A model generated the notes under the pieces. It made no database searches and had not been told where the DNA came from. It saw only the letters and a program-made list of their open reading frames with translations. Both the position numbers and the translations under genes were made by a program. This document shows, in pieces, positions 10,079 through 49,000 of a DNA stretch of 64,000 nucleotides (within the stretch, counting starts at the first letter, position 1; each line of letters opens with the position of its first letter). This stretch comes from an uncultured Holophagales bacterium. Lineage in GTDB: Bacteria; Acidobacteriota; Thermoanaerobaculia; Multivoradales; UBA5704. The stretch is from contig CAWJGT010000003.1 of NCBI GenBank assembly GCA_963842525.1, forward strand, positions 704,001 to 768,000. Direction: 5' to 3'.

Positions 10079-13000
10079 GCCATCCTCCCGCCGCCGAGCT
10101 CGATTCCCTGGAGAATGCCATCGCCGTCCTCGGCCTGGCCGGGCGCTTCCCGCAGGCTCGCACCCTCGACGAGCTCTGGGAGAACCTGCGCAACGGCGTC
10201 GAGTCGATCCGCGTCCTGACCGAACCGGAGCTGCTCGCCGCGGGCGTCCTCGCCTCGACCCTGCGCGACCCGAGCTACGTCCGCGCCGCGGGGGTGGTCG
10301 AGGGGATCGACCTCTTCGACGCTCCCTTCTTCGGCTTCAGCGCCCGCGAGGCGGCGTTCCTCGACCCACAGCAACGGCTGTTCCTGGAGTGCGCCTGGGA
10401 GGCCCTGGAGTCGGCCGGCTACGACGCGCTGCGCATCCCGGGCCCGGTGGGCGTCTACGGCGGCACCAGCGCGAACAGCTATTACCTCTTCTACCTCTTT
10501 TCGCGCGCCGACATGCTCAACTCGCCGTCGGCCGGCCAGAGCTTCCTGGGCGGGGACAAGGACTTCCTCTGCACCCGGACCAGCTACAAGCTGGGCCTGC
10601 GGGGTCCCAGTCTCGGCGTCCAGACCGCCTGCTCGACCTCGCTCGTCGCGGTCCACCTGGCCTGCCAGAGCCTGCTCAATGGCGAGTGCGACATGGCGAT
10701 CGCGGGCGGCGCCTCGCTCAGGGTCCCGCAGACGACCGGCTATTTCTGGCAGCCCGGCGGCATCCTGGCGGCGGACGGCCATTGCCGCGCCTTCGACGCC
10801 GAGGCCGGCGGCTCGGTCCCGGGCAGCGGCGTAGGCGTTGTGGTCCTGAAGCGCCTGGAGGACGCTCTCGCCGACGGCGACACGGTGCGGGCGGTGATCC
10901 GCGGCTCGGCGATCAACAACGACGGAGCCCTGCGGGTCGGCTTCACCGCACCCAGTGTCGAAGGGCAGGCCGCTGTCATCGCCGAGGCCCTAGCTCTCGC
11001 CCGGGTCGACCCGGCGACCATCGGCTACGTCGAGGCCCACGGCAGCGGCACTCCCTTGGGCGATCCGATCGAGATGGCTGCGCTCACCCGCGCCTTCGAG
11101 AGCGACCGCACGCGCCGTGGCGCCTGCGCCGTGGGCTCGATCAAGACCAACCTCGGCCACCTGGACGCGGCGGCAGGCATCACCGGCCTGATCAAGGCCG
11201 TTCTGGCGCTGGAGCATCGCGAGATCCCACCCAGCCTGCATTTCCGGACGCCGAACCCGAACGCCGGCTTCGCGGACAGCCCGTTCTACGTCAACACCCA
11301 GCTCCAGGAGTGGACGACGGACGGCGCTCCGCGGCGGGCGGGCGTCAGCTCGTTCGGCATGGGCGGGACGAACGCGCACGTGGTCCTGGAAGAGGCCCCG
11401 GAGCCCGAGCCTTCAGGGGTGTCCTCCGGGGCGCGCCCCTGGCAGCTCCTCCTCCTCTCGGCGGTGACCCGCACGGCCCTGGAGGCCGCCACGGACAACC
11501 TGACCGCGCACCTGGAGAAGCACTCCGGGCAGCCTTTCGCGGATGTCGCGTACACGCTCCAGGCCGGCCGCCGCGTCTTCGCCTATCGGCGGGCCCTTGT
11601 CTGTAGGGACGGAGAGGATACGCGACGGGCCCTGGCGGAGCGCGATCCCGCGCGGCTGCTGGAGGGCTTCGAGGAGCGGACGGACCGCACCGTCGCCTTC
11701 CTTCTCCCTGGCCTTGGGGATCAGTACGACGGCATGGCGCGCGGCCTCTACGAGGGCGAGCCCGTCTTCCGCGACGAGGTGGACCGATGTTGCGAGATCC
11801 TGCGGCCGATCCTGGGGATGGATCTGCGGGAGGTGCTGTTCGCGGGAGGGGAGGAGGGAGACGGGGACGGTCCCGACCTCCGTGCCCTCCTCGGCCGGAG
11901 GAAGGAAACCGGCCGCTCCGACCGCACCGCGATCGCTCAGCCGGCCCTGTTCGTCGTCGAGGTCGCCCTGGCGCGGCTCCTCCGGGAGTGGGGGATCGAG
12001 CCGCGGGCTCTCCTCGGCTACAGCCTGGGCGAGTACGTGGCCGCCCACCTCGCGGGTGTGATGACCCTGGAAGACGCCCTGCGGGTCGTGGCACTTCGCG
12101 CGCGGCTGATCGAGGAGCTGCCCGGCCGGCGCCATGCTGGCCGTGCCGCTGTCCGAGGCCGAGGCCGCCGGTCTGCTCGGCGAGGAGCTGTCCATCGCCG
12201 CGGTGAACGGCCCGGAGCTGTGCGTGGTGGCCGGTCCGGTCGACGCGGTGGCGACGCTGGAGCGGCAGCTCGGGGAGCGCGGCTTGTCCGTACGGCGCCT
12301 CGCGACCTCGCACGCCTTCCACTCGAAGATGATGACACCGGTGGCCGCTGCCTTCGAGCGGGTGCTGCGGGAGGTCGACCTCCGCGCCCCTGAGATGCCC
12401 TACATCTCGAATGTGACCGGCACCTGGATCACGCCGGCCGAGGCCACCGATCCGGCGTACTGGGTGCGCCACCTTCTGGAGCCGGTGCGCTTCGGCGCCG
12501 GGCTGGCGGAGCTGGGGCGCGAGGCCGGGCGGGTGCTGCTGGAAGTCGGCCCCGGCCAGAGCCTGAGCAGCCTGTCTCTCCAGAGGGTGTTTCGAGATCC
12601 TCCCCCTGGGAGCGCCGACGCTCCCAGGGAGGAGGGACGGACCGCTCTTCCGACCCTGCGGCCGTCCTGGGAGCGGCGGCCGGACCAAGCCTTCCTCTTG
12701 GGCACCCTCGGCCGCCTCTGGCTCGCGGGTGTTTCGGTCGACTGGGCCGGCTTCGCGAAGGAGGAACGCCGGCGGCGCGTTCCGCTGCCGACCTATCCCT
12801 TCGAGCGGAAACGGTACTGGATTGAGAGTCCGGTCTCCGAGGTATCCGAGGCCGTGGGACCTCACCCCCGGCCCCTCTCCCATCTCCCTTCCACCCGCCC
12901 GCCGGGAGAGGGGGGAGCGCTGACCGACAGCTCCCAGGCTTTCCAAGGTCTTTCTCCCCTCTCCCGGGGAGGGGAAGGGTGGGAGATGGGAGAGGGGCCG

Positions 13001-16000
13001 GGGGTGAGGTCCATCGCCACCACCACCCACGGCCGTCCCGGGCTCGCCACGCCCTACGTCGCTCCCACGACTCCGACCGAGGCGGCGTTGGCCGAGGTCT
13101 GGCAGGAGCTGCTGGGTGTCGCGCCGGTGGGCATCCATGACAGCTTTTTCGACCTCGGCGGCCACTCGCTGATGGCGTCGCAGCTCGTGGCCCGCCTCTC
13201 CGCGCGCTTCGGCGCCGAGGTGCCGCTCGTTGCGCTCTTCGAGGCCCCGACCGTCGCGGCGCTCGCCGTGCGGCTTCACGGCGCGCCGGAGGCTCAGCTC
13301 GAGACAGCCCTGCCGCGCCGGCCTCAGCGGGATCGCGCTCCGCTCTCCTTCGCCCAGCAGCGCCTCTGGTTCGTGCACCACCTCGCGCCCGAGAGCAGCG
13401 CCTACAACAACCCGGTCGCGATGCGCCTGCGCGGCCCGCTCGATCTTGCGGCGCTGACCGAAGCCCTGGCCGAGATCGAGCGGCGGCACGAGGTCCTGCG
13501 CACCCGCTTCCCCGTCGAGGACGGCGAGCCGGTGCAGCTCATCGAGGACCCGAGGCCGGTCGAGCTTCAGCGGATCGACCTCTCGCATCTGGCAGGGGAG
13601 GAAGGCGAGGCCGCGGCCCGGAGCGCCCTCTGGAGCTTCGTCGAGCCTCCCTTCGACCTCGCCCGCCGGCCGCCCGTGCGCCACCTGCTGGCCCGGCTTA
13701 CGGAGGAGGACCCGGAAGAAGACCACCTCTTCGTCACCGCCATGCACCACATCCTGTGGGACGAGTGGTCGCAGGGGATCTTCGTGCGCGAGCTCGCCAC
13801 CCTCTACGAGGCGTTCCGCGACGGCCAACCCTCGCCGCTCCCCGAGCTGCCGATCCAGTACGGCGACTGGGCCCTGTGGCAGCGCGAGCACCTGCAAGGT
13901 GAGGTCCTGGAAGAGCACCTGTCGTATTGGCGGGCGCGGCTCGACGGCGCGCCGCGCCTGCTCGCCCTGCCCACCGACCGGCCGCGCCCGCCGGTCCAGA
14001 CCTTCCGCGGCGCGACCCGCGCCTTCGCCGTCTCCGAGGAGCTGCAGCGGAGCCTCCATGCAGTCTCCCAACGACAGGGCTCCACCCTCTTCATGACCCT
14101 CCTGGCGACGTTCCAGGCCCTCCTCGGCCGCTATGCGGGCCAGGAGGACGTGGTCGTCAGCACCGGCACCGGCGGTCGCGACCGGGTCGAGGCCGAGAGT
14201 CTGATCGGCTGTTTCATCAACATCCTCCTGCTGCGCGCCGACCTCGGCGGCGGCGTCTCGTTCGACGAGCTCCTGGCGCGCACCCGCGAGAGCACCCTCG
14301 GCGCTTTCGCCCACCAGGACGTCCCCTTCGAGCTGCTGGTCGACGCTCTGCAGATCGAACGCGACCCGAGCACCACGCCGTTCGCCCAGGCCATGCTCGT
14401 CCTGCTCAACGTGCCGCCCGTGGACCTGGAGCTGCGCGGATTGGAGGTCAAGGGGGTGAGGATCGACCGCCAGGTCTCGCAATTCGACCTTGTCCTCTAC
14501 CTCACGGAAGAAGGGGGCCGGCTCGGTGGCCAGCTCGAATACAACGTCGACCTCTTCGACGAGGCCACGGTCGACCGCCTGCTCGGTCACTACCGCAACC
14601 TGATGGAGCGGGCCGCCGCCGACCCTGGCCGCCGGATCGCGGAGATCTCGTTGCTCTCCGAGGCCGAGCGGCGGCAGGCGGTCGAGGAGTGGAACGCCAC
14701 CGCTGAGGCCTTCCCGCGCGATGCCTGCCTGCACGAGCTGTTCGACGCCTGGGCGGACAAACAGCCCGAGGCCACGGGGCTGATCTTCGGCGACGAGCCC
14801 TTCACCTACGCCGAGCTGAGCCGCCGGGCGAACCGCCTGGCCCACCACCTGATGAGGCTCGGCGTCCGCCGGGGCGACCGCGTGGGCGTCTCCCTGGAGC
14901 ACGCGCCCGAGGTGGTGGTCTCCCTGCTCGCCGTGCTCAAGGCGGGCGGCGCCTACATGCCGCTCGACCCCGGGTACCCGCAGGAGCGGCTCGCCGCCAT
15001 GCTGGAGGAAGCCGGTCTGAGCGCCCTCCTCACGCAGAAACGCCTGGCACCTCGTTTTTCTGACGTCCCGACGGTGCTCGTTGATCAGGATTTCGCCGGC
15101 GCAGGAGACGAAAGCCCGCGGACCGGCGTGGGGCCGGAGGACATGGTCTACATGATCTTCACCTCCGGATCGACCGGCCGTCCCAAGGGCGTGCTGCTCG
15201 ACCATCGCGGCCGGGTCAACAACTTCACCGATTTCAACCGCCGCTTCCGCATCGGACCGGGCGACGCCGTGCTCGCCCTTTCGTCGCTGAGCTTCGACAT
15301 GTCGGCCTACGATGTCCTGGGCACCCTCGCGGGAGGCGGCACGATCGTCCTGCCGCGCCTCGAGGAGCTGCGGGAGCCGTCGCGCTGGGCCGGACTGATG
15401 ACCCGCCATCGGGTCACGATCTGGCACTCCGTCCCGGCCATGCTGGAGATGCTGGTGGACAGCCTGGAGCCGCGGCCCGAGGCGGCGCCGCGCTCCCTCC
15501 GCCTGGTCCTCCTGGGCGGCGACTGGATCCCGGTGACGCTGCCGGACCGCCTGCGCGCGCTCGTTCCGGAAGCCGAGGTGATCAGCCTGGGCGGCGCCAC
15601 CGAGGTCTCGATGGATTCGACGATCTTTTCCGTCAGCGCGATCGATCCGGCCTGGAAGAGCATTCCCTACGGCGTGCCCATGGCCAACCAACTCGCCTAC
15701 ATTCTTGGGCCGGACGGCGGCCCCAACCCGGCCGGCGTGGCGGGCGAGCTCTGCCTGGGCGGCGTGGGGGTCGGCGCCGGCTATTTCGGCCGGCCGGAGC
15801 TGACGGCGGCGAAATTCGTGCCCGATCCGTTCGGGTCGGGCGACCGCCTCTACCGCACGGGCGACCTGGCGCGCTGGCGGTCGGACGGCGTCCTGGAGCT
15901 GCTCGGCCGCATGGACTTCCAGGTCAAGGTCCGCGGCTTCCGCATCGAGCCCGGGGAGATCGTGAGCGCCCTGCGCCAGCACCCGGCCGTGGACGACGTC

Positions 16001-16569
16001 GTGGTCCTGGCGCGGGAGGACCAGCCGGGCGCGAAACGTCTGGTGGCCTACCTGGTGCCGGCCCCGGGAGTTGCGGTCGACGTGGACGAGGTGCGGGAGC
16101 TGGCGCGGCGCCTGCTGCCGGGCTACATGGTCCCGTCGGCGTTCGTGGTGATGGAGACCCTGCCGCTCACGCCCAACCGCAAGCTGGACCGCAAGGCCCT
16201 GCCGGTGCCGGAAGAAGCCGCGACCGAGCGCGAGCTGGTGCCGCCGCGCACCGCCCTGGAGCAGGTCCTGGCGGGGATCTGGCGCGACGTCCTGCGGGTT
16301 CCTGACGTGGGCGCCTTCGATCACTTCTTCGACCTGGGCGGGCATTCGCTGGCAGCCACCCGGGTGGTGACGCAGATCCAGGAGGTCTTCCTGCTGGAGG
16401 TGCCCCTGCGCCTGCTGTTCGAGTCGCCGGTGCTCGCCGAGCTGGCGGCCCGTCTGGAGGACCTGGCGGCGCGCGAGGGCGTGGACGCCGCCGGCATCGC
16501 CGAGGTGCTGGCGGACATCCAGGAGCTGCCCGAGGAGGAGGTGCATGCGCTGCTCGCGGAGGAGCCCGG

Positions 16570-16573
<4 letters not shown>
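10075..16573 (+). CDS. Hybrid PKS-NRPS (KS-AT-ACP-C-A-PCP), frameshift near 12128
   Basis: KS triad TACSTS/EAHGSGT/NLGHL; AT GYSLGE and HAFHS (malonyl type); GGHSL ACP; C HHILWDEWS; A-domain [11 protein letters not shown] and YRTGDL; GGHSL PCP. Joins ORFs 9586..12393 and 12134..16573. Confidence 0.92.
12857..13012. repeat. In-frame palindromic repeat (CCTCACCCCC..CCCTCTCCC / GGGAGAGGG..GGGGGTGAGG family) in the AT-ACP linker
   Basis: Terminal inverted repeats GGACCTCACCCCCGGCCCCTCTCCCATCTCCC and GGGAGATGGGAGAGGGGCCGGGGGTGAGGTCC; translated as PHPRPLSH..MGEGPGVRS. Confidence 0.9.
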
Positions 16574-26933
<10,360 letters not shown>

Positions 26934-27003
26934 AGCTCCTGGTCGCCAGCCTCACCTTCCGCCCCCTCGCGGAGACCGTGCGCGACACCTTTGAGGTCCG
27001 GGC

Positions 27004-27344: not shown

Positions 27345-27346
27345 CG

Positions 27347-30067: not shown

Positions 30068-30099
30068 TTTGGTAACTGGTCATCGGGAGGTTCCCAACT

Positions 30100-31511
30100 A
30101 AGTGCCAGCCGAATGTTAACCTTCTGAAGTGTCAATCGCACTTTCCCGTCTCGTTTTGGTGTGCAAACTGGTTGGTGAGTAGCATCTAAACCCGCCGCGA
30201 GGCTGTCGCTCACTCTTCGTGGGCGTTTTGGGCGGCTTGTACGACTTCTTTGGGGGTTGAAGGGTAAACCTCTCCCGATCCCGCGCGCAGGAAGTGGTCG
30301 GCGACCGGCTGTAAACTGCGAAGGCTGTCAGCGATCCAAAGGCCCCGAAAGCCTACCCGCTCACCCAGGGTAGGGCCGGCGGGAAGCTGCCTGCCGGGAA
30401 GACAACATCGCGCATCCCCGCCTTGAGCTTTTCCGCGGCTGTCCGGAAGGCGCCCAGGAATTCGCCATAGGCCCGGTAGAGCTCGAGACGGACCTTCTTG
30501 CTCGCAGCATGGAAGAGCGGAGCGGGCGACTTCTTGGGCTTGGCTGGCCGGTCGTGGCGCTTCTGGGCTCGGATCGCCTCGGGCCCGAGCACCGGCCGCC
30601 CCATGGCTTCCCGGACCTCCGCCGCCCGCGCCTCGATGCCGGCGACCAGGGCAGCGATCTGCTCCCGATATTGTTCCGGCGTGAGATGAGCCCAGCAGGG
30701 CAGGGGCTCAAGATGGAGGGTGTATTCGGTCGCGAAGTCGAGGTGGTGGAAGGACTCGCCCCTCTGGCGCGCGGCGTACTCGCGGGAGCGGTTGAACCAG
30801 TGGCCGACGAGGGGAGCACCGTCCAGCAGGGCGGGAATGACGCTGACGCCCGGCCAGTCCCGGAGCTTTTCCACAAGCCCTTCTTTGACCCCGTGGCTCA
30901 AAATGTACGCGAGACGCTCGATCTGGGCCTGAGGCTCGTCGCTGATCGGGATGGCCTGGAAGCGGCGGGACCAGAACTTCTCCCTCCAATCGGCCAGGCG
31001 CCCGGCTTCGCGGGCGAGGTTGGAGTTGAAGTGATTCATGAATGATGCGAGCTGGCGGGTGTCGGCGACCTGGAGGAGGAGGTGATAGTGCCCGGAGCAG
31101 AAGGCGAAGGCGACAAGGCGGACTGGGTAGAGCTCATGGGCGCGTCCAAGAGCACCGAGGATGATGTCGTTGAGCTCCGCTGAGGGAGCGAGCAGGAAGC
31201 GGCCGTGGACGGTCCGTGTGGTGACCTCGACGAGTCCGCTCCCCTCGGATGGCATGAAACGGAGTTTTCGGCTCATGCCCCTTAAAAAGACGTAAAACGG
31301 GTCGCGAATCTTGCATAACGAAGCAAAGTTCTTGTCGCGGACCGGGATTGAGCCCGAATTGTTGCTTAGACGTCAACAGAAGGACGTGCCTGATGGAAGG
31401 CCCGGAGGCTGTTCTATTCTGGTCCTGTTCGGCTGGCACTTCGGCCGCTTCGGCCGGCAGTCCTGTTCGGCTGGCACTTCTGCCGGCACTTCTGCCGGGC
31501 ACTTCCGCCGG
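30100..31511. mobile_element. HUH-transposase unit bounded by inverted AAGTGCCAGCCGAA end motifs
   Basis: AAGTGCCAGCCGAA at 30100-30113; its reverse complement TTCGGCTGGCACTT at ~31428 and ~31466, followed by GGCACTTC stutters. Confidence 0.6.
30353..31276 (-). CDS. rayT: REP-associated tyrosine transposase (RAYT, Y1 HUH family)
   Basis: VTTRT..F, AFAFCSGHYHLLL (HuH), FWSRRF, YILSHGV.EGLV..DWP pattern, with a C-terminal extension. Confidence 0.85.
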   Translation of the reverse strand: MSRKLRFMPSEGSGLVEVTTRTVHGRFLLAPSAELNDIILGALGRAHELYPVRLVAFAFCSGHYHLLLQVADTRQLASFMNHFNSNLAREAGRLADWREKFWSRRFQAIPISDEPQAQIERLAYILSHGVKEGLVEKLRDWPGVSVIPALLDGAPLVGHWFNRSREYAARQRGESFHHLDFATEYTLHLEPLPCWAHLTPEQYREQIAALVAGIEARAAEVREAMGRPVLGPEAIRAQKRHDRPAKPKKSPAPLFHAASKKVRLELYRAYGEFLGAFRTAAEKLKAGMRDVVFPAGSFPPALPWVSG

Positions 31512-31519
31512 TGGGAGCC

Positions 31520-31942
31520 GAACTGAGTGGGGAGCAATCCCTTCTGACCGCCGTGCAGAAGTCAGCAGAGGGCATAGTATATTAGAGGCGAGAGCCTCGA
31601 AGGTCCTGAACGGTGCCCCGGTCAGGACCGGGGTGAATGAGAGGAGAAGTCGCTTCGTGAGGAACCACGGCATTGCATCTGTCAAGCAGCGAAAGCTGCC
31701 TCTGGCTTGTCCGGAGGATGAAGCCGGGGTTAGGTCACGGGGGAGGACACTCCGGTTTGTCCCACGAACCGGCTGGAGCGGGAGTTGGAGCCATCCAATC
31801 CAACATCAGTTCCCGCGACGGCAGTTCGCCGAAGGGCGAATGGCAAGAGGGGCCGACCGAATCAGCCGAACCGCCGTGTACGTGACCCGTATGCACGGTG
31901 GTGTGGGAGGAGGGGGTCCGTGAGGGCCCCCCCTATCCCGAT
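31520..31942 (+). mobile_element. Group IIC intron remnant (DII-DIII, ORF-less DIV, DV-DVI; DI and RT missing)
   Basis: DIII-like CAGAAGTCAGCAGAGGGCATAGTA..GAAGGTCCTGAAC; DV GAACCGCCGTGTACGTGACCCGTATGCACGGTGGTGTGGGAGG; DVI GGGGGTCC-GTGA-GGGCCCCCCC ending TATCCCGAT. Confidence 0.88.
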
Positions 31943-31964
31943 TAGGCGGCAGGGGGAAACGCAC

Positions 31965-32330: not shown

Positions 32331-32456
32331 CCATCTACCCTCCGCATGGGCTTTGGCCCCAATAGGTGCCATGCGATTCTGGAGCCAGAACGATTCCGGT
32401 CTAGAATAGGTGCCAGAGGATTCTTGGGGCACTTCTGCCGGCGCAGGAGCGGAGCC

Positions 32457-32975: not shown

Positions 32976-33006
32976 GCGGAACGCGGGCACGGCTATACTC
33001 CGCTCC

Positions 33007-34215: not shown

Positions 34216-34225
34216 GGAGGTCGTC

Positions 34226-34729: not shown

Positions 34730-34796
34730 TCTTCTCGAGGTGCTAGAGTCCGCTCAATCCGCGGGGCTCACCCGCAAAGACTGAAAGGGGATCTCG

Positions 34797-36734: not shown

Positions 36735-36775
36735 GGGCGCGGAGAATAACAGAGTCCTGAGTTACACTTGCGCCG

Positions 36776-38579
36776 ATGTTTCGACTCGTGGCGTACGCGC
36801 CGGATGGGGTCCGCCGCTTTCCCGTGCAGAAGAGCGAATCGCTGATCGGCAGCCAGGCCGATTGCGACATCGTCCTGCCCTACACGGGGGTGGCGCAGAA
36901 GCATGCCATCCTGCGCTTCGACGGCAGCGAGCTGCGGATCGAGGATCTGGGGAGCCGCAAGGGGATGCTGGTGAGCGGCCGCAAGGTCCGCGAGTCCGCT
37001 CTCGAGGTGCTGGACGAGGTCCGGCTGGGCGGCGTCACCCTGCTCGTCGAGGACGTCCTCCCGGAGCCGGAGAAGCCCGCGGCTTCGTCAGAGCCCTACC
37101 TGGCCGGCCCGCCGCGCAGCACGCCCGAGAGCCTGCTCGGGCACCTCGCGCGGATCAGCGAGTGGGTGCTCTCCGACACCGAGAGCCGCACCACCTCCGA
37201 GACCCTGGTTGACCGCGTCCTGACCGACTTCGGCGGCGGCGTCTTCCTGTTGCTCCAGGGCGAGCCCGACAAGGCCGGGGTCAAGCTAATCGTGAGCAGC
37301 GACCCTGCCCTGCTCGGCAGCGGCGAGGGCCTGCTGGACCAGCTCCTCTCCCACCGCGCGGCCACGGACCAGGCCTCCGCCAAACGCGGCGCCTTCGAGG
37401 GCGAGCTGGCCGGCGCACAAGCCTGGATCTGCCACCACACCTTCGGCGCCGTCGACCGCTCCTATACCCTGCTCGCGGCCCTGCCCGTCTTCCGTCCGGA
37501 CGACGCCTGGTCGCCCATCCCGTTTTTCCGCGCCCTCGGGCATCTGCTGGTGCTCGGGCTGGTCCATCACGTCGGATGGTACGAGCCGATCCTTCCGGGC
37601 CATCCCGGGCAGCAGGACCTGTCCCTCGACCCGGGGCTGCAGATCGGCCAGTCGCTGATCATGAAGCAGGTCATGGAGCAGCTCCGCGCCGCGGTGGACC
37701 CGGCCGTCCACGTCCTGCTGCGCGGCGAGCCCGGCGTCGGCAAGGAGATGTTTGCCCGCTCCCTCCACCTGTCGAGCGCGCGCCGCAACGGCCCTTTCAT
37801 CGTGGCGAGCTGCAGCGGCGCGCGGCCCCTCCAGATCGAGGCCGACCTGTTCGGCGCCGAGGTGGCCGGCAAGGGCGGGCCGGTGCGGCGCGAGGGCAAG
37901 CTCCTCCTCGCCCATGGCGGCACGCTGTTCCTCGACGAGGTGGACCAGCTCCCTCTCGAAGTCCAGGCGCGGCTCGTGCGCTTCCTGCGCTCCGGCGAGG
38001 TCGAGCCCACGGGGAGCAATGCATCGCACAAGGTCGAGGTCCGCCTGATCGCCGGCAGCCGCAGCGTCCTCGAATCGGTGGTCGCACAGGACCTCTTCCG
38101 CGCCGACCTCGCCTACCGGCTGTCGCAGCTCACCATCGAGATCCCGCCGCTGCGCGAGCGGCGCGAGGACCTGCCGCTCCTCATCCAGTCCTGCATCAAC
38201 CGGTTCTGCCACGAGACGGGCAAGCGGATGCTGGGGATCACGGTCAAGGCGATGACCGCGCTGCTCAACTACGACTATCCGGGCAACCTCGCGGAAGCTC
38301 GAGAACATCGCCCGCCAGCTCGTCTATCTCGCCCCGCCGGCCCGTCCGGTGGAGATCAACCTGCTGCCCGAGCGGGTGCGCAACGGCACGCCGCTCGCAT
38401 CCCGTGTCGACCCAGGCTCCGACCTCGACCTGAGCCGTCTCGTCGGCACCTGCGAGCAGTCGGCCATCCGCGAAGCCCTGCGCCGCACCCAGGGCAACAA
38501 ATCCCAGGCCGCCCGCGTCCTCGGCCTCTCCCGCAACGGCCTCGCCATCAAGATGGAGCGGTACGGGCTGAAAGGGTGA
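36776..38579 (+). CDS. FHA-domain NtrC-type AAA+ regulator with Fis HTH, lacking GAFTGA (frameshift near 38295)
   Basis: FHA-like IGS..DIVL..VAQKHA..DLGSRKG; GEPGVGKE; LFLDEV; YPGN; HTH GNKSQAARVLGLSR in ORF 38349..38579. Confidence 0.88.
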
Positions 38580-38588
38580 GATGGACCC

Positions 38589-38774
38589 TCAGGGGCCTTC
38601 ACTGATCAGAGCGACTTGAGCCTCAGCGACCTCTGCCACCTCCAGGTCAGTGATCGCCGCAGCATCAAGATACTGTCGGATTGCTTCTTCCACGAGCTCA
38701 CTGATATCGCGGCTTTGGATTCCAGCAAGATAGCGTAATTCCTTCTCCATACGAGCTGTCAACTCAATCGTCAT
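38589..38774 (-). CDS. RHH/CopG-like small protein (orphan antitoxin, probably truncated)
   Basis: MTIELTARMEKELRYLA..ISELVEEAIRQYL; low-GC patch; no toxin gene follows. Confidence 0.55.
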   Translation of the reverse strand: MTIELTARMEKELRYLAGIQSRDISELVEEAIRQYLDAAAITDLEVAEVAEAQVALISEGP

Positions 38775-38828
38775 GCGAAGAGGCTAGGGCAGCGCGGGGA
38801 CGAAGGCAAGCCAAAGGCCCTGAGGAGC

Positions 38829-39914
38829 CTACAGCCCAATCTCCAACCAGTCCGCAATCGGCTCCGTCGAGCTGACCACGTGCATGCCGGCGGCGGCAAA
38901 GCGGTCGAGGGCCTCTTCGGCTTGTGGGGTGAAGTCGAAGAGGAATTCTCCCGGACGCTCCGGATCGGGGACCGCCACCGAAGACATGCAGTCGCGCAGG
39001 ACGTAGACCTTGCGGGCCAGCTTCTCGTTGCGCGTCAGGATCTCCCCCAGGAGGTCGTCGATCGTGCTTTTGACGCAGTGGCTCGATGCCTGGCCGGCGA
39101 TGATCACCGCGTCTGACTTGAGGAGGGTCTTAATAAAGCGCGCGTTGCGCTGGGCGAGCGGCCGGCCGTCGAAGCGGATCAGGACCTCCGGCGCCAGGAC
39201 CGAATAGTTTTCGGTCAGCGGGTGGTCACCCTTGCTCTCGATCCATCCCTTGGCGCCCCGCGCCCAGGTATGGAAGAGCCGTGCTTCGTGGATCACCCCC
39301 GCCAGCGGATGGCCGTCGCTCCCCAGGATGCAGTGCGGCGGCCAGAGATAGAGCTTGTACTTGCCTGCCTTCTCCAGCTCCTGGCAGTAGAACTCAACCT
39401 GCCGCTCCAGCCAGTCGCCGTCGCCGTCGCAGACCCACCAGGCAATGTCGGGGTTCGGCCACACCCGGCCGCTGCGGATCATGTCGACCGTGATCTCCTG
39501 GTGCGGCGCGAGAGGCTGGTCGTCCCCGCCCAGCCAGAAGGAGGGGAAGAAGATCTGGAACGGGAAATGGGTGTCCAGCGTACAGGTGACGTCGGTGACC
39601 AGCTCCAGGTTGCGATAGAGGAAGCGTGCGATGCGGTCGCTGTCGTCCATCGCCCCGGTGCCGCTCCGGCCGCCCACGTAGAGGGTGCCCTGGGGAAAGC
39701 AGAAGTCCTTCTGCAGGTCGATCAGCAGGAGCTGGATGCGCTTGCGGTCCTGGGACGACGGGCGGATGCCGTGCTCGCGCCGCCAGGCCTGGGCACTCAG
39801 GAAAAGCTGGTGCTGGTCCGGGGCATAGCTCCAGTCCCGGGCGCGCGCCGGATCGTAGAAGCCGGGGACGGGCAGCTCGCGCAGCTTGCGGTGGGCCTGG
39901 AGGATTGCGGTCAC
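38829..39914 (-). CDS. pncA: Nicotinamidase/isochorismatase-family hydrolase
   Basis: [29 protein letters not shown]; translationally coupled to pncB. Confidence 0.8.
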
Positions 39915-41413
39915 GGCGGGCTCCTTTCCTCAGCCCCCGGAGCATGCACGAGGCCGCGGGCCTCCAGGATCAGCCGGGTCTTCAGGTCGAACAGGCCGAG
40001 CTCGAGCCCGACCGGATAGAGGTGCGGGTTGACGAAGCGTTTGATCCCGGGGTGAAGGCTCTGGAGCTGCTCCTGCCCGCGCTGCCGCACCTCGGCGAGC
40101 GGCGGCGGATCGTAGACCCGCCGGCCGGCGCGGAAGACCGGCACCAGCAGGTCTTCCGACGGCATCCCCGCCGGGATCTCCTTGCGCCGGGTCAGGTCGC
40201 CGGGGTCGACGATCGTCGGGCTCGCGGGCGCTCCAAGCTCCTCGTCGAAGATCATGTCCGCCGCGAATTGGCCATGCGTGGAAAAGCGCCGGACCTGCTG
40301 GATCCCCGGCGTCGTGACCTTGACCGCCTGCTCGGACAGCTTGACCTTGTATTTCCATGGAGAGCCGGCGTCGCGCACCGCGGTCAGCTTGTAGACCCCG
40401 CCCAGGGCCGGATCGTCGTACGCGGTGGCCAGGCGGGTGCCCACACCCCAGACCGTGATCTTCGCTCCCTGGAGCTTGAGGCTCTCGGCCAGGTGCTCGT
40501 CGAGCTCGCTGCTCGCAACGATCTGTGCCTTGGGAAAGCCCCCCTCGTCGAGGATCTTCCGCGCCTCGATGCTCAGGTATGCGAGGTCGCCCGAGTCGAG
40601 GCGGATGCCCGTCATCTCGTGGCCGCGCTCGCGCAGCCGCCGGCCCACCTCGACGGCGTGGCGGACCCCCTGCAGACTGTCGTAGGTGTCGACCAGAAAA
40701 ATTGAATTATTGGGCATCGCCTCGGCCCAGGTCTCGAAGGCCTCCAGCTCGCTGTCGAACGAGAGCACCCAGCTATGGGCGTGAGTTCCCTTGACCGGAA
40801 TGCCGAAGAGCTTGCCGGCGAGGACGTTCGACGTCGCGGCGCACCCCCCGGCATAGGCGGCCCGGCTGGCGGAGATCCCGCCGTCGATCCCCTGCGCCCG
40901 GCGCAGCCCGAACTCCAGGACCGGCTCGCCCTGGGCCGCCAGGCAGACCCGCGCGGCCTTGGTCGCGATCAGGGTCTGGAAATTGATCACGTTGAGCAGC
41001 GCCGTCTCCAGGATCTGGCACTGGAGGATCGGGCCGCGCACCCGCACCAGCGGCTCATGGGGGAAAACCGCCGTTCCCTCCGGGATGGCGTCGACGTCGC
41101 AGGCGAGCTCCATCCGCCGCAGCATGTCCAGGAAAACCTTTTCGAAGAGCGGCGTGCCGTCGTCGGCCCGCAGGCCTGCGAGATAGGCGAGGTCGTCGTC
41201 CGCGAAGCGGAAACCCTCGATCAGCTCGATGGCCGGCGCCAGGCCGCAGGCGAGGGAGAAGCCGCTGCCGAACGGCGGTTTTCGGAAGTGGAGGTGAAAG
41301 ACCGCCTCCTTGTCCGCGGTCCCCGACTTCCAATAGGCATAGGCCATCGTGAGCTCATACAGGTCGGTCAGCAGCGCCAGCGACGGCCTGTAGATCTCGC
41401 TCAGGATGCCCAC
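39911..41413 (-). CDS. pncB: Nicotinate phosphoribosyltransferase
   Basis: [48 protein letters not shown]. Confidence 0.96.
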
Positions 41414-41427
41414 GCCGTGCTCCCTCG

Positions 41428-43569
41428 TTACTCGTTCACCGTGGCGACCACCAGCCGGATCAAGGCCTCGACGTCTCGCAGGTCAGACACCTCGACCGGC
41501 GAGTGCGAGCTGCGGCCCGGCCACGAGAAGGGGATCATCTCGGTCCCGTTCGGCAGGAAGGCCACGCCGTCGCTCGCGCCGCCGGTCATGCCGTACTGGA
41601 CCGGGATCCCTGCGCGCCCGGCGATCCCCAGGAAGCGGTCGATCAGCTCGCGCGGGAGCAGGGTGGCGTTGTCCATGGTGCGGAGAACGGCCCCCTTGCC
41701 CAGCGGCGCGTAGCCGAACTGGTGCGATTCGCGCGGCGTGTCTGAAGAGACGAAGGTGTCGACCGGATGGACCCGGTCCAGGTCCTTCAACCGGTCCGCG
41801 AGGTCCTGGGAGCCGTTGAGCCCGACCTCCTCCTCGACGACCCAGGCGAAGGTCACGCGCCGCTTCAGACGGGATGGATCGATCTGCCGCAGGGCGAGGA
41901 GGAGCGCCGTGCAGCCGTTCCTGTCGTCGAAGCCGCGCGCCAGGGCGCGGTGCCGGCCCATGCGGAACATCTGCTTGGGCATGGTGACCGTGCTCCCGGC
42001 GTGGATGCCGAGCCGCTCGACCTCCTCCTTGGAAACCGGGCCGAGCCAGACGGTCAAGGCACCTGACATCGCCCATTTTGTGGCCGTACGCCAGTCCTCG
42101 CGCGGCTCGAACACAGCGGGAACGGCGCCGCGATCGTTATCGCCGGGGTGGACCAGAGCAGCCTGCGCCTCCCAGGCGCCGCGGATGAGCCCGCCCCGGT
42201 TCTCGAGGCGAAGCCGGCCGTCCGGCAGAACCTCCGCCACCCGGAAGCCGACCTCGTCCATGTGGGCCACGAAGAGGATGTGCTCGTCCCCCTGCCCAAA
42301 GGTCACGGTGAGGTTGCCCTTGTCGTCGACCTCGGGCTTCGTCCAGGCGGGGAGATGGCGCCGGATCTCCTCGCGCACCGGCCCTTCGGCGCCGCTCACG
42401 CCATAGCGGGCGATGAGCGAGGAGAGCAGCTTGGCCGTCTCCGGATGCTCCTGATCCATCTCGAAGGCGGCCGGCGGGGGAGGGATCGGGGACGGCGTCC
42501 GGGACCGGGAGCTTCCGCCGGCAAAAGCGAGGATCGCGTCCGAGAGCCGCTGCACGTCGGCGGACGAGACGGTCTCGACCGGCGTGCCGGGGTAGCGGGC
42601 CGGCAGGCCGACCCAACCCAGGCGGGCCGCACCCCACGGCGGTGCCGCGCCGAAGCCGCCATCCGGCCGGACGTGTGGAGCCGTCCGCGTGCGGAGCGCC
42701 GCCGGGACCTCTCCCGCGCCGAGCGGGCCGGCGCCGGGCTCCGGCAGGCCCTCGAAGACGGGTCCGTCCTCGCCCTCCTTCCAGCCGAACGCCGGGCTCA
42801 CCCCGAGCACTTCGGCGAACGGTCCCTGCGTGCCCACCAGGTATCGCAATCCCGCGCCGTTGAGGAAGTCGCCTGCGGTCCACGCGAACACCACCGTCCC
42901 CGTGCCGGGCTTCGCGATGCGCGCCGCGGCGTCGACCTGGGCGATGCAGGCCGCCTTGAGAGCGGCGGACGGCCCGGCGAGGAGCCCGCCGGCGAGCCGG
43001 GACGGCCGGCGGATCAGGGCTACCGGATCGAGCAGGCGGATGCCCATCTCGCCTGCCTCGGCAGCCGACTCCGCCCCCACGTCGATCCAGATGTCGCGGG
43101 TCAGGAACGGCGGGCGCTCGACCGGCTCCGGTTCCTGCATCAGATGGACCGACCGGATCGTGACCCCGCCGGGCACCCATCCCCGGGACCCGCCGACCAT
43201 CACCACATTTCCCTCGTGCGACTGATCCCACAGCGCCCCCTGCAGCCCGCCGCCGGCCCGGAAGACGCGCACCCAGCCGTCAGGCTCGATGCCGGTGACT
43301 GCATACCCCGGCTCGCCGAGAGGGCACGCCACCAGCTTCCGCGGCTCCCCGGAGCCCACCGACAGGACCAGGTTGCCCGCCGCATCCTGCTTCACAGGCA
43401 GTCCCGGAAGCCGCTGGCGGACGAAGTCCCGCGCCGGCTCCTCGCGGCCGGCCACGGCGATGACGTTCAGGAATGCCTCGATTTCGTCGGCGAGGCCCGG
43501 GTTGTCCGCAGCCGCGGGCACGGCCCCGGCTGCGAGCAGGAAGAGGGGAAGAAGGGTTCGTAGGATCAC
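41428..43569 (-). CDS. Secreted M42-family aminopeptidase with tandem domains
   Basis: Signal peptide; C-terminal half has [17 protein letters not shown] and HSPVE; N-terminal half is homologous but lacks the metal ligands. Confidence 0.85.
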
Positions 43570-43635
43570 GGGCGAAGTCTATACCGCGGTCCGCTACCGG
43601 GTTCGGTGCTACGATTCCGGATACGGAGAAATGTA

Positions 43636-44118
43636 ATGGAACGAGCCCGCCTGGATTCCATCCGTATCGCGTCTCCATGCCCCGCGAAATGGGAGGAGAT
43701 GGCAGGGGATGACCGTGTCAGGTTCTGCGGTCTCTGCAAGAAGAACGTCTACGACCTGAGCGCGTTGACCCGTGGGGAAGCCGAACGGCTCCTCGGGGAG
43801 AAGGAGGGCAAGCTCTGCGCCCGGCTCTTCCGCCGCGCCGACGGCACTGTGCTCACCCGCGACTGCCCGGTGGGATTCCGCGCCCGCGTCCATCGCGCCG
43901 TAAGGCGCACCACGGCCGCCGTCGCCGCTCTGGCGGGTCTTTTCGTGCTCGCGCTGGACGCCCTCCTTCTGATCGCAGGGCGCGAAGCGCCTGATCAGTC
44001 TGCCAAGCCTCCAGCTCTGGGCCGAGAGGTGCAGCCAGCCCCGGCACAGAAGTCGCCGCCGGCAGTCCTCTCCGAGAAAGAAAGGGAGTTGCTCGGTTCG
44101 CTCGGATACGTCAACTGA
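43636..44118 (+). CDS. Hypothetical protein with an N-terminal Cys motif and a TM helix
   Basis: SPCPAKWEEMAGDDRVRFCGLCKKNVYDLS..LCAR..DGTVLTRDCP, followed by a hydrophobic helix. Confidence 0.75.
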   Translation: MERARLDSIRIASPCPAKWEEMAGDDRVRFCGLCKKNVYDLSALTRGEAERLLGEKEGKLCARLFRRADGTVLTRDCPVGFRARVHRAVRRTTAAVAALAGLFVLALDALLLIAGREAPDQSAKPPALGREVQPAPAQKSPPAVLSEKERELLGSLGYVN

Positions 44119-44160
44119 TCCATCGCTGATCCACGTCCTCCTCCGCGCCGCGCCCGCTCG

Positions 44161-44283
44161 CCCCGGGTTGACACCCGGGGCTACCCAGTTCCGCCCTCCG
44201 GGCTCTCGAATTCTGGGCACTTCGACCGCCATTCCGGCGAGCCCGGAGGGCGCCATTTGGTAGCCCAGGGTGTGAACCCTGGG
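44161..44283. repeat. GTAG-type REP inverted doublet (REPIN)
   Basis: CCCCGGGTTGACACCCGGGGCTAC..GCCCTCCGGGCT / AGCCCGGAGGGC..GTAGCCCAGGGTGTGAACCCTGGG. Confidence 0.85.
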
Positions 44284-44306
44284 CCAGGGGGCTTAGAATG
44301 CTCCCC

Positions 44307-46009
<1,703 letters not shown>

Positions 46010-46010
<1 letters not shown>

Positions 46011-49000
46011 TGCGCACCAAACTCCTCCCTCCCGCCCTCCTGCTCGGCACGCTGGGGGCGCTCTTCCTGCCGCTCCCCTGGTCCGGCCTCGCGTTGCTCG
46101 CTGTCCTCGGCCTCTGGCTGTGGATGCGGCCGCCCCGGCGCGAGGTGCTGGTCACGGTGCCGGCCTTGCTCGTGGCGCTCGCCGCCCTCGGCCTGCGGTG
46201 GGAGGCCGAGCTGCGGGCCCGCGCTCCGGGCGAGGGATGGATGGAGGAGGCCACCGGCAGGTACGAGCAGCTCTGGGAGGGCCTGCGGCAGGAGGCCCGC
46301 ACCGCCGCCGAGGCCCTCCAGACTCCACCCGCCTTCGTGCGCGCCCGCCTGGACGCGTTCCACCGCTTGCAGAGGATGAAGCCGTTGGTGGGCGGCGGGC
46401 GGCGCGCCTTCGTGCTGCTGGACCCGGACGGCGTCGCGGTCGCCTGGTCCGGCGAAGGGCTGCTCCACGAGCCCGACCCCGATCTGCCGCGCGCCGGGCT
46501 TCACTACCAGGCGAGCTTCAGCTCCGTCACGCTGCTCGCCATCGAGCCCCTCCCTTCGGACCGCAACGCGCGGCGGCCCTGGCGGGTGGTCTCCGGCGCC
46601 AGCTTCCCGACCGACGTCCTCCCGTTCCGGGTCGTGCCGCGCCGGCTGCGCTGGTCGATCCTCGATCCGCAGGCGGAGCCTCTGCCAGGCGAGATCGCCC
46701 TGCGGGTGCCCGGCGCGCCGATCCTGGTCGCCCAACGGCCGGCCGCGGGCGACCCGCTGGCGCGCGAGTGGGCCTTGCGCCTCGCCTGGTCCGGCATCGC
46801 CTTCGCCCTCCTCGCGCTGGCGGCGCTCCGCGGCTCGGGACTGCTGTTCCCCTTCGAGCCCCGGACCGGCCTCGACACCGGGCCGCGCCTCGGCCTCGCG
46901 CTCCTGTTCCTGGGCGGCATCTTCGCCGCTGGCATGGCGGCCTCCCTCACGCCTCTCACGCTGGCGCTTGTGACTGCGGGGCTGGGCTTCGCGGCGCTCG
47001 GGCTTGCGGTGCAGCGGTTGGCGGGACCTCACCCCCTGTCCCCCTCTCCCATCTCCCTTCCACCCCCCGCCGGGAGAGGGGGGACGCATCCGGAGCCGTT
47101 CGGCGAGCTCGCCACCGAGGCATCAACAACGTCCCCCCTCTCCCGGGGCAGGGAGGGTGGGAGATGGGAGAGGGGGACAGGGGGTGAGGTTCTCCGCATC
47201 GGCCTCCTCGGAGCCCTCGCCATCCTCCTGCTCCTCCTGGCCGCCTGGGCCGTACATCTCGGCGGGCCTCCCATCGACCTCGCCGCGGCCGTTCTGGACC
47301 GGCCGGAGGTTTTCGGGCTGCGGCTTGCCCTGGCTGCCGCCTCGTTCGGCTTGTTCTGCCTCGCCGGAGCCCTTCGTCGCGCAAGCCCGCCGCCGGGCGA
47401 CCGCTGGGCCTGGGGCGCGGCCCTCGCCCTGCTCGCTGGAGCGGCGCTGGCCGACAGCCCGTTCCTGGCCGTGCCCCTCTTCGCCGCCGGAGGAGCGGGA
47501 ATGGCCATCTATGCCGACCGCCGGCGGCTGCGCGAGGGGCTGGCTCTCGCCGGCCTCGCCCTGCTGGCGGTCCTGGTGGCCGGCGGCGCCTCCGAGGCCG
47601 CCTACCTCCTGCGGCTGCGCCACGATGCCGGGGACAAGCTCTTCGACAGGCTGCTCCCTCCCTCGCAACGGGAGCTGACCGCGGTCTCCGCCGAGCTGCG
47701 GAGGCACTTCGCGGCGAGCAATCTGGAGGAGCGGACGCCGCGCCCGCCGGCCGGCCTGGTGCGGCAGGACCTGGCCTATGCGCTCTGGCGGGGATCGCCG
47801 CTGGCTCGGCCCCATGCCCTGTCCGCCCTCGTCATCCAGCCGCACGAGGGGCCGGCCTCGTCCTTCTCGTTCGGCCTCCCCTCGATCCACGCGGGGCGGA
47901 TGGACTGGACTCCCGAGATCCGGGATGACCTCCGGCTCCCTCTCTGGGGGACCGTGACGGTAAGCGGCCGGGCAATGATCACCTTCGCCGGCCGGCCGTG
48001 GGCGATCGCACGGTGGTGGCTGATGCCGCGGCCCGGCTTCCGCGTCGGCGATCCGCGGCGCCTCACCGACATCGAAGCCGGCCTCCTGCGCGGCGGGCCG
48101 GCGCCCGGTCCGTTCGAGGACCTCCCCGGGCCCGTGCTCTACGCCCTCTACACGCCGAACGGGCGCCCCGCCCTCTCCCCCTGGGAGGAGGAGCCGCCCC
48201 TGCCGCAGCGCATGCGTATGCCGCCCGGCCAGCAAGGCTCGTTCACCGGCGTGGAGACCCCTTCCGGCACCGCCCGCGCCTGGGTCCGCTCCAGCCGCGC
48301 GGGCTGGGAAGTCGTCTATCTCCCCTATGAGACGCCGTTCACCGCCCTCGAACGGGTGGCCAGCTTCGCCGTCGGCGCCCTCTGCCTGCTCGCCCTCGCC
48401 ATTCCGGCCGTGCTCCTCCTCGGCCTGCCGCGCGCCGCCTTCCGGGACGTCCTGCGCCTCGCGGTGCGCTCCTACTCGAAGCGCCTGATCCTGGTCTACA
48501 CCTTCCTCCTCATCGTGCCGCTGGTGCTGCTCAACGTCGTCCTGGTGGGCGCCATGAAAGACCGGCTGACCCAGCAGCAGCTCGACGCCGGCAAGGCGGC
48601 CCTGACCGCCGCCCAGAAGGTCCTCGGCGAGCGGCTGCTCGAGCTGCCGCCGGGCTTCGGCGTCGATGCCACCCTCGGTGACCGGCTGCTCTCCGACGTC
48701 TCGGAGATCGTCCGCCACGAGATGAACCTCTACTACGGAAGCATCATCTACGCGTCGAGCAAGCACGAGCTGTTCACCGCCGGCCTGCTGCCCAACCGCA
48801 TCCCGGGCGAGATCTATTCAGAGCTGGCCCTCCTCGGCTACGGCCTGTCGTACCGGACCAACCGGGTCGGAGGGACGGAATACCTCGAGATCTATGCGCC
48901 GCTGCGCGTGCCCGGCGAGCCCAGCGGCGATGACAAGCTGGTCCTCTCCATGCCGCTCCTCGCTCAACAGGAGGAGACCGACCGCGAGCTGGCCCACCTG

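Follow-up and report, generated by a model that had tools for sequence, protein, structure and literature searches.

The genome of this uncultured acidobacterium carries a dispersed family of palindromic repeats. Its copies within genes keep the reading frame more often than chance, are absent from the same sites in most orthologues examined, are biased toward nonribosomal peptide synthetase (NRPS) hosts and gather at one hot spot immediately before the adenylation motif A3. These patterns are best explained, with a probability of about three in four, by a non-autonomous repeat whose copies land widely and of which selection spares the intergenic and the tolerated in-frame ones. Insertion followed by selection, translation of the copies and their tolerance by the host enzymes are what we infer from these patterns.

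Repeat copies in the window

In the window (the whole 64-kb stretch of DNA analysed), a search with a profile made from genome copies locates eight repeat loci (Table 1). At the first seven the best coding frame is identical on both flanks and no internal stop is present, which bears out the count of eight copies, seven of them coding and in frame, made earlier from the sequence alone; the insert peptides quoted at that time are present in the translations. The coding calls are based on a home-made codon score with a cut of 12, used in place of a gene finder, and six of the seven coding loci lie above this cut, while the left flank of the copy at 17000 scores 9.1, yet is open and in frame.

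Table 1. Repeat loci of the window, with the span matched by the profile and the full extent where it differs
Profile locus	Full extent	Form	Strand	Reading and context
12857-13012		inverted doublet	.	156 nt = 52 codons, in frame, ORF 12134-16573, residues ~242-293
17000-17145	16960-17190	long-form doublet	.	in frame inside second condensation domain; adds ~75 residues
20081-20214		long perfect hairpin unit, then second unit in same direction	.	in frame
22944-23004		solo unit	+	~20 codons in frame, C-terminal part of third adenylation domain (reference module 910-927)
24679-24745	24679-24830	clear unit (24679-24745) and decayed partner	.	in frame (local frame 2)
25396-25452		solo unit	+	19 codons in frame, directly upstream of A3, fourth adenylation domain
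47024-47192		inverted doublet	.	~55 codons in frame, 1814-residue sensor kinase ORF 44807-50251
50250-50299	50250-50501	intergenic copy; arms 50250-50299 (left) and 50438-50501 (right)	.	begins at kinase stop codon

Six of the copies lie in a PKS-NRPS cluster. The first doublet belongs to a PKS module, where it separates what is left of the acyltransferase from the carrier domain (Pfam AT 1-141, PP-binding 318-378). The long-form doublet at 17000 is made of the profile core and a 38-40 nt extension (...TCTGGAAATTCCTGCGCGAGCCCTG), and a subfamily with this extension exists. The copy at 20081 occupies a carrier-to-condensation linker (reference module position 1037, then 2) and its DNA fold reaches -33.8 kcal/mol (z -7.1). 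The 24679 copy adds 56-57 codons inside the fourth condensation domain, and the copy at 25396 (reference module 577, then 598) is located at the genome-wide hot spot. The extra length relative to sister modules is 222-234 nt for the 17000 copy, 51-63 nt for 22944 and 168-171 nt for 24679, all multiples of three.

The kinase copy, in our reading of the alignment, lies within a short loop that is bordered on each side by a hydrophobic stretch resembling a membrane helix, and it has an RNA fold of -152.9 kcal/mol (z -13.1). The right arm of the intergenic copy is a variant ending in GGGGGAGAGG, and an unrelated palindrome with 31-nt arms (50279-50396) is nested between the two arms of this copy.

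Repeat unit and comparison with known systems

The unit has the pattern CCCCTCTCCC-loop-GGGAGAGGGG-N2-3-GGGGGTGAGG with a first loop of 18-22 nt, or 27-28 nt in one subfamily, and its three blocks are visible in every window unit. With loop lengths left free, 276 strict three-block matches are found genome-wide, 200 of which have a first loop of 18-22 nt and 23 a loop of 3-6 nt; the loop length of exact-stem hairpins peaks at 18-21 nt. The gap between the G blocks is 2-3 nt for ten-base blocks (206 exact matches) and 3-5 nt for nine-base blocks, the register of the second loop being a function of how the G run is counted. The usual arrangement of the units is an inverted doublet of 145-170 nt, and nearly half of the loci are inverted doublets with a spacer, about 145-210 nt in length. 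Arms of 55-61 nt that are 87-90% complementary constitute terminal inverted repeats. The window contains 30 occurrences of CCCTCTCCC versus 2.7 expected (shuffle maximum 7), and 26 of CCTCACCCCC with at most one mismatch versus 13.4 expected. No Rfam family reaches its gathering score on the repeat.

Judged by its block pattern, the repeat is a long-first-loop doublet form of the BoxC/PIT/TMECO intrastrand triplex motif. As described by Holder 2015 (PMC4666352), this motif has the blocks CCCTCNCCC ... GGGNGAGGG ... GGGNGAGGG on one strand and a second loop of 3 nt, and an intrastrand triplex, by CD and NMR, is one of its defining features; its function and mobility are unexplained. Several properties are shared: the blocks CCCTCNCCC, GGGNGAGGG and GGGNGAGG(G), conserved blocks with variable loops, occurrence on both strands and in many phyla, some inverted pairs and no tie to known transposons. 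The differences lie in the first loop (18-22 nt, or 27-28 nt in the subfamily, here versus 3-6 nt there), in the hundreds of copies, nearly half of the loci being spaced inverted doublets, and in the location, as about one in six loci here lies inside ORFs, whereas for E. coli K-12 PMC4666352 describes TMECO as “always located intergenically”. Folding of the present repeat was computed as hairpins, and the long-loop unit could also adopt the triplex form. Neither the identity of the unit with this cross-phylum motif nor the five frame breaks in the PKS-NRPS (see below) had been noticed in the sequence-only reading.

The comparison with Rickettsia palindromic elements, proposed in that reading, is apt as far as the way of working is concerned. 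According to PMC10969869, those elements are palindromes of ~150 nt found in frame in unrelated genes, with the peptide at fold-compatible sites, and each family encodes a conserved peptide (Ogata 2000, 2002, summarised therein). The present repeat, likened to them by description only, belongs to a separate lineage, has no conserved peptide and shows a host bias toward megasynthases.

REPs carry a GTAG/CGTC tag, and REPINs, which are REP doublets, are mobilised by RAYT tyrosine transposases. The present repeat resembles REPINs in its short hairpin units, single or in inverted doublets that make a long hairpin, and in the absence of target duplications, but it has no Y1 transposase within 3 kb of its units and many copies are intragenic. 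MITEs and intragenic ERIC-type repeats are similarly small, with terminal inverted repeats and occasional in-frame fusions to host ORFs (PMC10969869); unlike MITEs, the present repeat has no target-site duplication, and the spacing of its units gives no clear sign of a parent insertion sequence bounded by matching ends. In the literature covered, to which the supplementary motif lists of PMC4666352 and the breakpoints of PMC8097286 did not belong, no triplex-type or palindromic repeat translated inside NRPS or PKS genes was found.

Genome-wide census and taxonomic spread

The profile search of the whole genome yields 814 units in 539 loci. Inverted doublets with outward termini account for 258 loci; two-unit loci with inward-facing termini are absent among the 539, and one locus is of the +-+ type. 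In the genus, exact matches number 116-295 in five of six genomes (G000 included) and 22 in the sixth. A second genus has 154, the rest of the family 0-21 and genomes outside the family 0-1, and the reversed-motif control gives 0 matches. This distribution suggests a patchy expansion centred on one acidobacterial genus.

Frame keeping

At 135 loci the DNA on either side of the repeat is coding on one strand, and in 93 of these cases the frame is the same before and after it (binomial versus 1/3, p 5.6e-17). At 32 of the 42 frame-shifted loci the upstream frame stops within or beside the repeat, which indicates gene junctions. Some of the loci counted as “in-frame”, among them the one in a topoisomerase/RecQ ORF and two situated where an ORF begins, may be junctions between genes across which the frame happens to stay open. 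The length of doublets modulo 3 is distributed 16/33/6 among in-frame loci versus 50/69/47 among intergenic-like loci. The repeat is read in three frames and in both orientations, as had been claimed for the reading in different frames, and because all three phases and two orientations are used, there is no conserved encoded peptide.

The larger part of the family lies outside genes. At 381 loci one flank or none is coding, and 89 loci (16.5%) are in frame inside ORFs, the remainder being mostly intergenic, while 42.5% of random places would be in frame, which amounts to a depletion of the repeat in genes. The description of the family as a protein-invading repeat thus stands in so far as copies have entered genes in frame, but it does not describe the 381 loci, nor does it agree with the depletion of in-frame copies.

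The proposed explanation begins with the unit, in which a C-rich stem pairs with a G-rich one and a further G-rich block might fold back onto the stem to give a purine-motif triplex; the inverted doublets of such units resemble REPINs or MITEs. Such a family would have expanded in the acidobacterial genus, its copies landing in many places and the survivors being sorted by selection, mostly to intergenic positions. Survival within a gene would require a frame-keeping length, avoidance of the TGA frame in GGTGAGG and a tolerant loop or linker. The translated repeat would then be a stretch of 19-57 (up to ~75) Pro/Gly/Ser/Arg-rich residues, for which multi-domain megasynthases would offer the most tolerant sites, above all the variable A2-A3 stretch.

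Empty sites and predicted structure

The kinase orthologues in related genomes lack the insert in eight of nine cases, and the ninth contains a doublet at the same site. The insert of the second condensation domain (C2) is missing from four sister condensation domains, in agreement with the earlier statement on sister modules, and also from the orthologues in two genomes of the same genus, so that comparison with insert-free orthologues defines empty sites for both copies.

In the predicted structure of C2, residues 91-163, which correspond to the insert, are the sole stretch of low confidence, although low pLDDT there is partly due to the scarcity of aligned sequences. The predicted folds are confident apart from the insert, and the inserted Pro/Gly/Ser/Arg-rich residues most likely form a disordered loop in these models. 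Together with the domain maps, this low-confidence stretch agrees with the placement of the inserts at linkers or loops proposed from the sequence.

Host genes and the NRPS hot spot

NRPS-like DNA, which makes up 9.8% of the genome, contains 41 of the 89 in-frame loci; further hosts are AcrB, the PBP1 transpeptidase, UvrD, CHAT and ABC proteins. Among 51 mapped copies, 23 are located at reference residues 560-605, immediately before A3. The A2-A3 distance is 49-116 residues in modules with the repeat versus a median of 67 without it, and in some modules the native ~45 residues between A2 and A3 are replaced by the repeat, where the activity of the adenylation domain may be lost.

Such a concentration could reflect the spread of coding copies by module duplication or gene conversion, the hot spot then being the result of shared descent or of conversion tracts. 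The hot-spot junctions are strikingly similar in several modules (VVLT|DPHP... and ...|AYVI), close kinship is seen in two of the 78 pairings of hot-spot modules (flank identity 84/87% and 66/87%), and natural NRPS recombination targets the A core, according to PMC8097286. The flanks of 13 hot-spot modules, on the other hand, have an identity of 0.44/0.33 versus 0.44/0.35 for random module pairs, and since they are as diverged as random pairs, most copies do not derive from one ancestral module. The other 76 pairs resemble random ones and identity does not jump across the repeat, so no recombination signature is present at the hot spot, and this single test, run on the 13 modules, does not support the suggestion that modules recombine with one another at the copies. 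Close sister modules carry unlike forms of the repeat, a solo unit of 55 nt and a doublet of 135 nt, and the non-NRPS hosts and the orthologous empty sites require true gain or loss. Spread by duplication or conversion is therefore unlikely as the general explanation.

It may also be asked whether the coding copies are kept for a function, as flexible spacers, as strong mRNA hairpins at which ribosomes pause while the giant enzymes fold, or as a swap sequence of the A core. The recurrence of copies at the site before A3 (23 of 51), the replacement of native residues with the frame intact, the very stable RNA hairpin of the kinase copy and the position of the hot spot where exchange units often start (PMC8097286) are in line with such a role. 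A conserved peptide is nevertheless absent, the insert appears dispensable in orthologues, in-frame copies are rarer than expected at random, and, besides the missing recombination signature, the repeat is absent from 190 of the 209 whole modules. Retention for a function is accordingly given little credence.

Frame breaks in the PKS-NRPS cluster

The frame of the PKS-NRPS is broken at five places (~12140; 22323-22368; 24442-24458; two within 25080-25115), spread over ~13 kb of the ~18-kb cluster and none of them at a repeat. As breaks lie near the 24679 copy, this copy is in frame with the true local frame and not with the long ORF 21915-26933.

The breaks raise the question of whether the hosts, at least the PKS-NRPS, are decaying pseudogenes in which the repeats are neutral debris and the frames leftover or a matter of chance, all the more as host expression is itself something we infer. 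The rate of breaks is, however, similar in all NRPS DNA, with 114 breaks genome-wide over matches that add up to ~935 kb, while as many as 209 modules are read from end to end in a single frame, and these figures fit assembly indels better than the decay of one cluster; the five breaks look like such indels, to judge from the sequence. The local frame is kept in all six cluster copies and at the 93 of 135 loci genome-wide, and the breaks are situated away from the repeats, all of which makes pseudogene decay a very improbable account. Given the many NRPS frame breaks in the assembly, some hosts could still be dead genes. In a search for sequencing runs, no RNA run was listed with the region, and of the words sampled 6% occurred in one DNA run. 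The short contigs of this run are uninformative on the five breaks, and the indels that it lists inside repeats may stem from other copies.

Mobility of the repeat

The genome contains 20 Y1-transposase (PF01797) matches, the nearest of which is 3.3 kb from a unit, and a RAYT link was rejected, as no Y1 match lies less than 3 kb from any unit. No target-site duplication is evident at the loci, 14 of 16 combinations of offset and length being without excess; the two combinations in which direct repeats at the flanks are in excess, 4 nt with offset 0 (18 versus 6.6) and 2 nt with offset 1 (29 versus 12.2), both fit, in our reading, a self-complementary palindrome that runs 4 nt further out.

An autonomous element between two units is likewise not supported: apart from the long doublets, the outward-facing arrangement is not clearly in excess among units 0.2-8 kb apart, and no parent transposon with the same two ends was found in the genome. 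A recurrent neighbour gene was sought among 959 neighbour ORFs and likewise discarded: the largest clusters have 12 members and are ordinary large families, for instance kinases, ABC ATPases, TPR proteins and sulfatases.

The search for a nuclease or transposase gene flanked by the repeat thus yielded none with matching ends, but it did reveal an integrase element with the unit at one end. The element is multi-copy and of P4 type, and in several species its end is formed by a solo unit. At five of the seven integrase loci of this genome the unit is positioned 937-945 nt before the catalytic match and 123 nt before the ORF, and the likeness between copies of the element starts exactly at the unit. 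No unit was found at the right end, and no tRNA gene is present at the five loci checked. The linkage recurs at 130-143 nt in three of four loci in three related genomes and at six of 11 named public loci, some of which may be the same DNA. A close integrase is present in four of six repeat-rich versus none of 25 repeat-poor genomes, the related genomes not being independent.

It is tentatively hypothesized, as a rather doubtful possibility, that the tyrosine recombinase of the P4-type element attaches to or recognises the solo unit as its site, and that this recombinase moves, or is aimed at, the triplex-type repeats.

Significance

Genomes of this kind call for a warning to gene callers and biosynthetic gene cluster tools, as they contain low-complexity inserts of 20-75 residues. 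The repeat also marks natural, reused permissive sites in the condensation, adenylation and carrier-linker regions of NRPS/PKS enzymes, and these sites, including the one before A3 where ~45 native residues are replaceable, are directly useful for NRPS/PKS engineering.

The integrase linkage provides a testable lead on the movement of the repeat. If that reading is true, it would be the first handle on the spread of BoxC/PIT/TMECO, a question open since the 1990s, and the in-frame megasynthase copies would be a by-product. In a free-living soil acidobacterium, a BoxC/PIT/TMECO-type motif acts in the manner of the Rickettsia palindromic elements and exceeds them in scale.

Structure of the repeat unit

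A single building block, consisting of CCCCTCTCCC, a loop of ~20 nt, GGGAGAGGGG, a gap of 2–3 nt and GGGGGTGAGG, can be read at all eight places in the window, where both motifs first noted from the sequence occur far above chance. The block is found alone or paired; in the paired facing copies CCTCACC...GGTGAGG is outermost and the spacer spans 36–76 nt. The arms of doublets are 55–61 nt long and 87–90% complementary. Folded as RNA, the kinase copy reaches -152.9 kcal/mol (z -13.1 against shuffles), and the solo units, treated as plain hairpins, are no better than shuffles (z about -1.4). A doublet subfamily carries a conserved one-sided extension of 38–40 nt (...GGGTGTCTGGAAATTCCTGCGCGAGCCCTG), present once in the window and at ~25 other loci of the genome.

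Coordinates of the features discussed (window positions unless a contig, C, of this assembly is named)
Feature	Coordinates	Form or match	Location or remark	Basis
Repeat copy	12857	paired facing blocks	between AT remnant and carrier domain	Pfam
Repeat copy	17000	paired facing blocks	within condensation domain	Pfam
Repeat copy	20081	one long perfect hairpin, then second unit	carrier-to-condensation linker	Pfam / reference module
Repeat copy	22944	solo block	C-terminal part of adenylation domain	Pfam / reference module
Repeat copy	24679		within condensation domain	Pfam
Repeat copy	25396	solo block	directly upstream of adenylation motif A3	Pfam / reference module
Repeat copy	47024	paired facing blocks	sensor kinase	
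Eighth copy			starts at kinase stop codon	sequence reading
Doublet extension	16960-17000	conserved, one-sided		
Nested palindrome	50279-50396	31-nt perfect arms, GGGGCAACC...GGTTGCCCC type	different palindrome, in intergenic doublet 3' of kinase gene	
Frame split	near 12140		PKS-NRPS, AT domain	
Frame split	between 22323 and 22368		PKS-NRPS, third A domain	
Frame split	24442-24458		PKS-NRPS, fourth C domain	
Two frame shifts	within 25080-25115		PKS-NRPS	
Integrase element	C23:154146-155662			
Integrase element	C27:60996-62512			
Integrase element	C25:171171-172682			
Integrase element	C23:423008-424523			
Integrase element	C4:1-1515			
XerC/D-like gene	C1:400805-402536		doublets on both sides	
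XerC/D-like gene	C23:50726-51771		doublet on 5' side	
Sister module	C18:21338-24523	55-nt solo		
Sister module	C19:506410-509637	135-nt doublet		
Inverted repeat	44152-44292	54-nt arms		
Acido-Lenti-1 RNA	44240-44283, minus strand	42.1 bits, gathering score 37	right arm of the inverted repeat	Rfam
ORF	30353-31605	weak IS200-type Y1 transposase match, 26.3 bits		
Group II intron D1-D4	31524-31605	41.4 bits	adjoins the weak Y1 match	
Tandem array	1654-2043	periods ~63-84 nt	GGGACCACTGGGAGCCAC... units	

Reading frame and empty sites

The window is identical to C3:704001-768000 of the assembly (9.95 Mb, 67.5% G+C, 34 contigs). A codon log-likelihood score was trained on 916 long ORFs, and a flank test assigned the best-fitting of the six frames to 240 nt on each side of every repeat locus. 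The flanks of all seven coding copies share the same absolute frame with no stop inside, which bears out the sequence-only reading of eight copies, seven of them coding with the frame preserved. None of the five frame breaks in the PKS-NRPS genes coincides with a repeat. Run on the whole genome, the same query returned 114 such breaks in NRPS matches summing to ~935 kb, so they are read as assembly indel errors; 209 complete C-A-T modules are readable in one frame genome-wide.

Insert-free orthologues define the empty sites. When nine orthologues of the sensor kinase from related genomes were aligned, eight lacked the insert and joined one membrane-helix-like stretch directly to the next, the stretches flanking the site appearing hydrophobic and membrane-helix-like in our reading of the alignment; one same-genus orthologue has a doublet at the same site. 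The gene starting at 16570 has orthologues in two same-genus genomes (68–73% identical and sharing its N-terminal docking stretch), and the ~75 insert residues in the second C domain of the PKS-NRPS are absent from both, as well as from four sister C domains, in agreement with the earlier observation that sister modules lack the insert. The predicted structure of this C domain is confident throughout (blocks of 84–98) except for residues 91–163, which are the insert, and that of an A domain with a doublet upstream of motif A3 is confident outside residues 116–145, the inserts having no aligned sequences, which alone lowers confidence there.

Genome-wide placement

A search of the genome with a unit profile (E ≤ 0.001) gave 814 units in 539 loci, of which 258 are doublets facing outward, 149 and 122 are solo units in one or the other direction, and 10 are arranged otherwise. 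Among these loci none is an inward-facing two-unit locus, and one is +-+. By the flank test, 89 loci lie in frame within an open frame, four share the frame but contain a stop, 42 have coding flanks in differing frames, 17 lie between opposite-strand genes, 238 have one coding flank, 143 have none and six are at contig ends. Length-matched random places score 42.5% "in frame" by the same test, hence the repeat is depleted inside genes. Where both flanks are coding on one strand, the frame is shared in 93 of 135 loci (p 5.6e-17 against one third); in 32 of the 42 shifted loci the frame coming from upstream terminates within the repeat or right next to it, which marks these as gene junctions. 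Measured from terminus to terminus, 33 of 55 in-frame doublets have a length of 1 modulo 3, with modes at 145 and 163 nt; intergenic-like doublets divide 50/69/47 by length modulo 3. All three phases and both orientations are read, and would yield Pro/Ser-rich or Gly/Arg/Glu-rich strings. The comparison with Rickettsia palindromic elements correctly describes the behaviour of the repeat.

Relation to known motifs

Holder et al. (2015; PMC4666352) give the pattern of the triplex motif TMECO as CCCTCNCCC N3-6 GGGNGAGGG N3 GGGNGAGGG, and describe it in E. coli K-12 as always intergenic, at times in inverted pairs and unlinked to mobile elements. The present unit matches this pattern apart from the first loop. 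Judged by its blocks, the repeat is of this known triplex-motif kind, but it differs in the length of its loop, in its doublet form and in lying within coding sequence.

When one genome was scanned for each species, the 3' half of the unit turned up in at least 120 stretches, which come from many phyla and mostly have loops of 4–8 nt; forms with a long loop, as here, were seen in metagenome genomes carrying the label Thermoanaerobaculia or Acidobacteriota. In a comparison of 30 relatives, exact matches to the pattern number 116–295 in four of five same-genus genomes, 22 in the fifth and 154 in a second genus of the same family; the pattern is abundant only in these two genera and nearly absent outside the family. 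A reversed control pattern had no match in any genome compared.

Mobility and the integrase element

No target duplications were found at repeat loci. The sequence-only reading had proposed looking for a nuclease or transposase gene flanked by the repeat; neither a RAYT near units nor an element bounded by two units was found in the genome. Tyrosine-recombinase matches number 22, eight with a repeat locus less than 1 kb away; the two best XerC/D-like genes each have a doublet on the 5' side. A P4-type integrase is found at seven loci, and in five a solo unit lies 937–945 nt before the catalytic match. This unit forms the left edge of the integrase element, 123 nt upstream of the integrase ORF, and the likeness among copies (88–94%) begins exactly at it and runs inward. 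Neither a unit at the right edge nor, at the five loci examined, a tRNA gene was found. The linkage recurs at three of four loci in related genomes and at six of 11 in named public genomes, some of which may be the same DNA. A close integrase is present in four of six repeat-rich and in none of 25 repeat-poor genomes, kin not being independent. REPs are reportedly targets for some insertion sequences, and by analogy the solo unit may be the target of the integrase island; alternatively, it may be the island's own recombination site.

Hosts and the site upstream of motif A3

Of the 89 in-frame loci, 41 fall in NRPS-like DNA, which covers ~0.98 Mb or 9.8% of the genome; host frames have a median length of 1624 residues. 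Mapped on a reference module, 23 of 51 placeable in-frame copies fall at residues 560–605, directly upstream of motif A3; another six map to 906–927, three to C-domain residues 156–173 and three or four to the linker between carrier and condensation domains. The A2-to-A3 distance is 46–131 residues (median 67) in 188 modules without the repeat and 49–116 in 13 modules with it, the repeat being extra in some and substituting a native stretch in others. The flanks of these 13 modules are as diverged as random module pairs, except for two related pairs, and identity shows no jump across the repeat, which favours several separate gains at a single site that tolerates the repeat. The suggestion that the repeats provide recombination points between modules finds no support in this comparison.

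Twenty other hosts were sampled, including AcrB, YfhO, UvrD, a CHAT-TPR protein, ABC proteins, a sulfatase, PKS modules and PBP1, where the repeat is within the transpeptidase domain; three of the 20 may reflect reading through a gene junction or an ORF start. Two sister modules on C18 and C19, with flanks 84–87% identical, carry a solo unit and a doublet, respectively, at the same site, and constitute a natural pair for repeat turnover.
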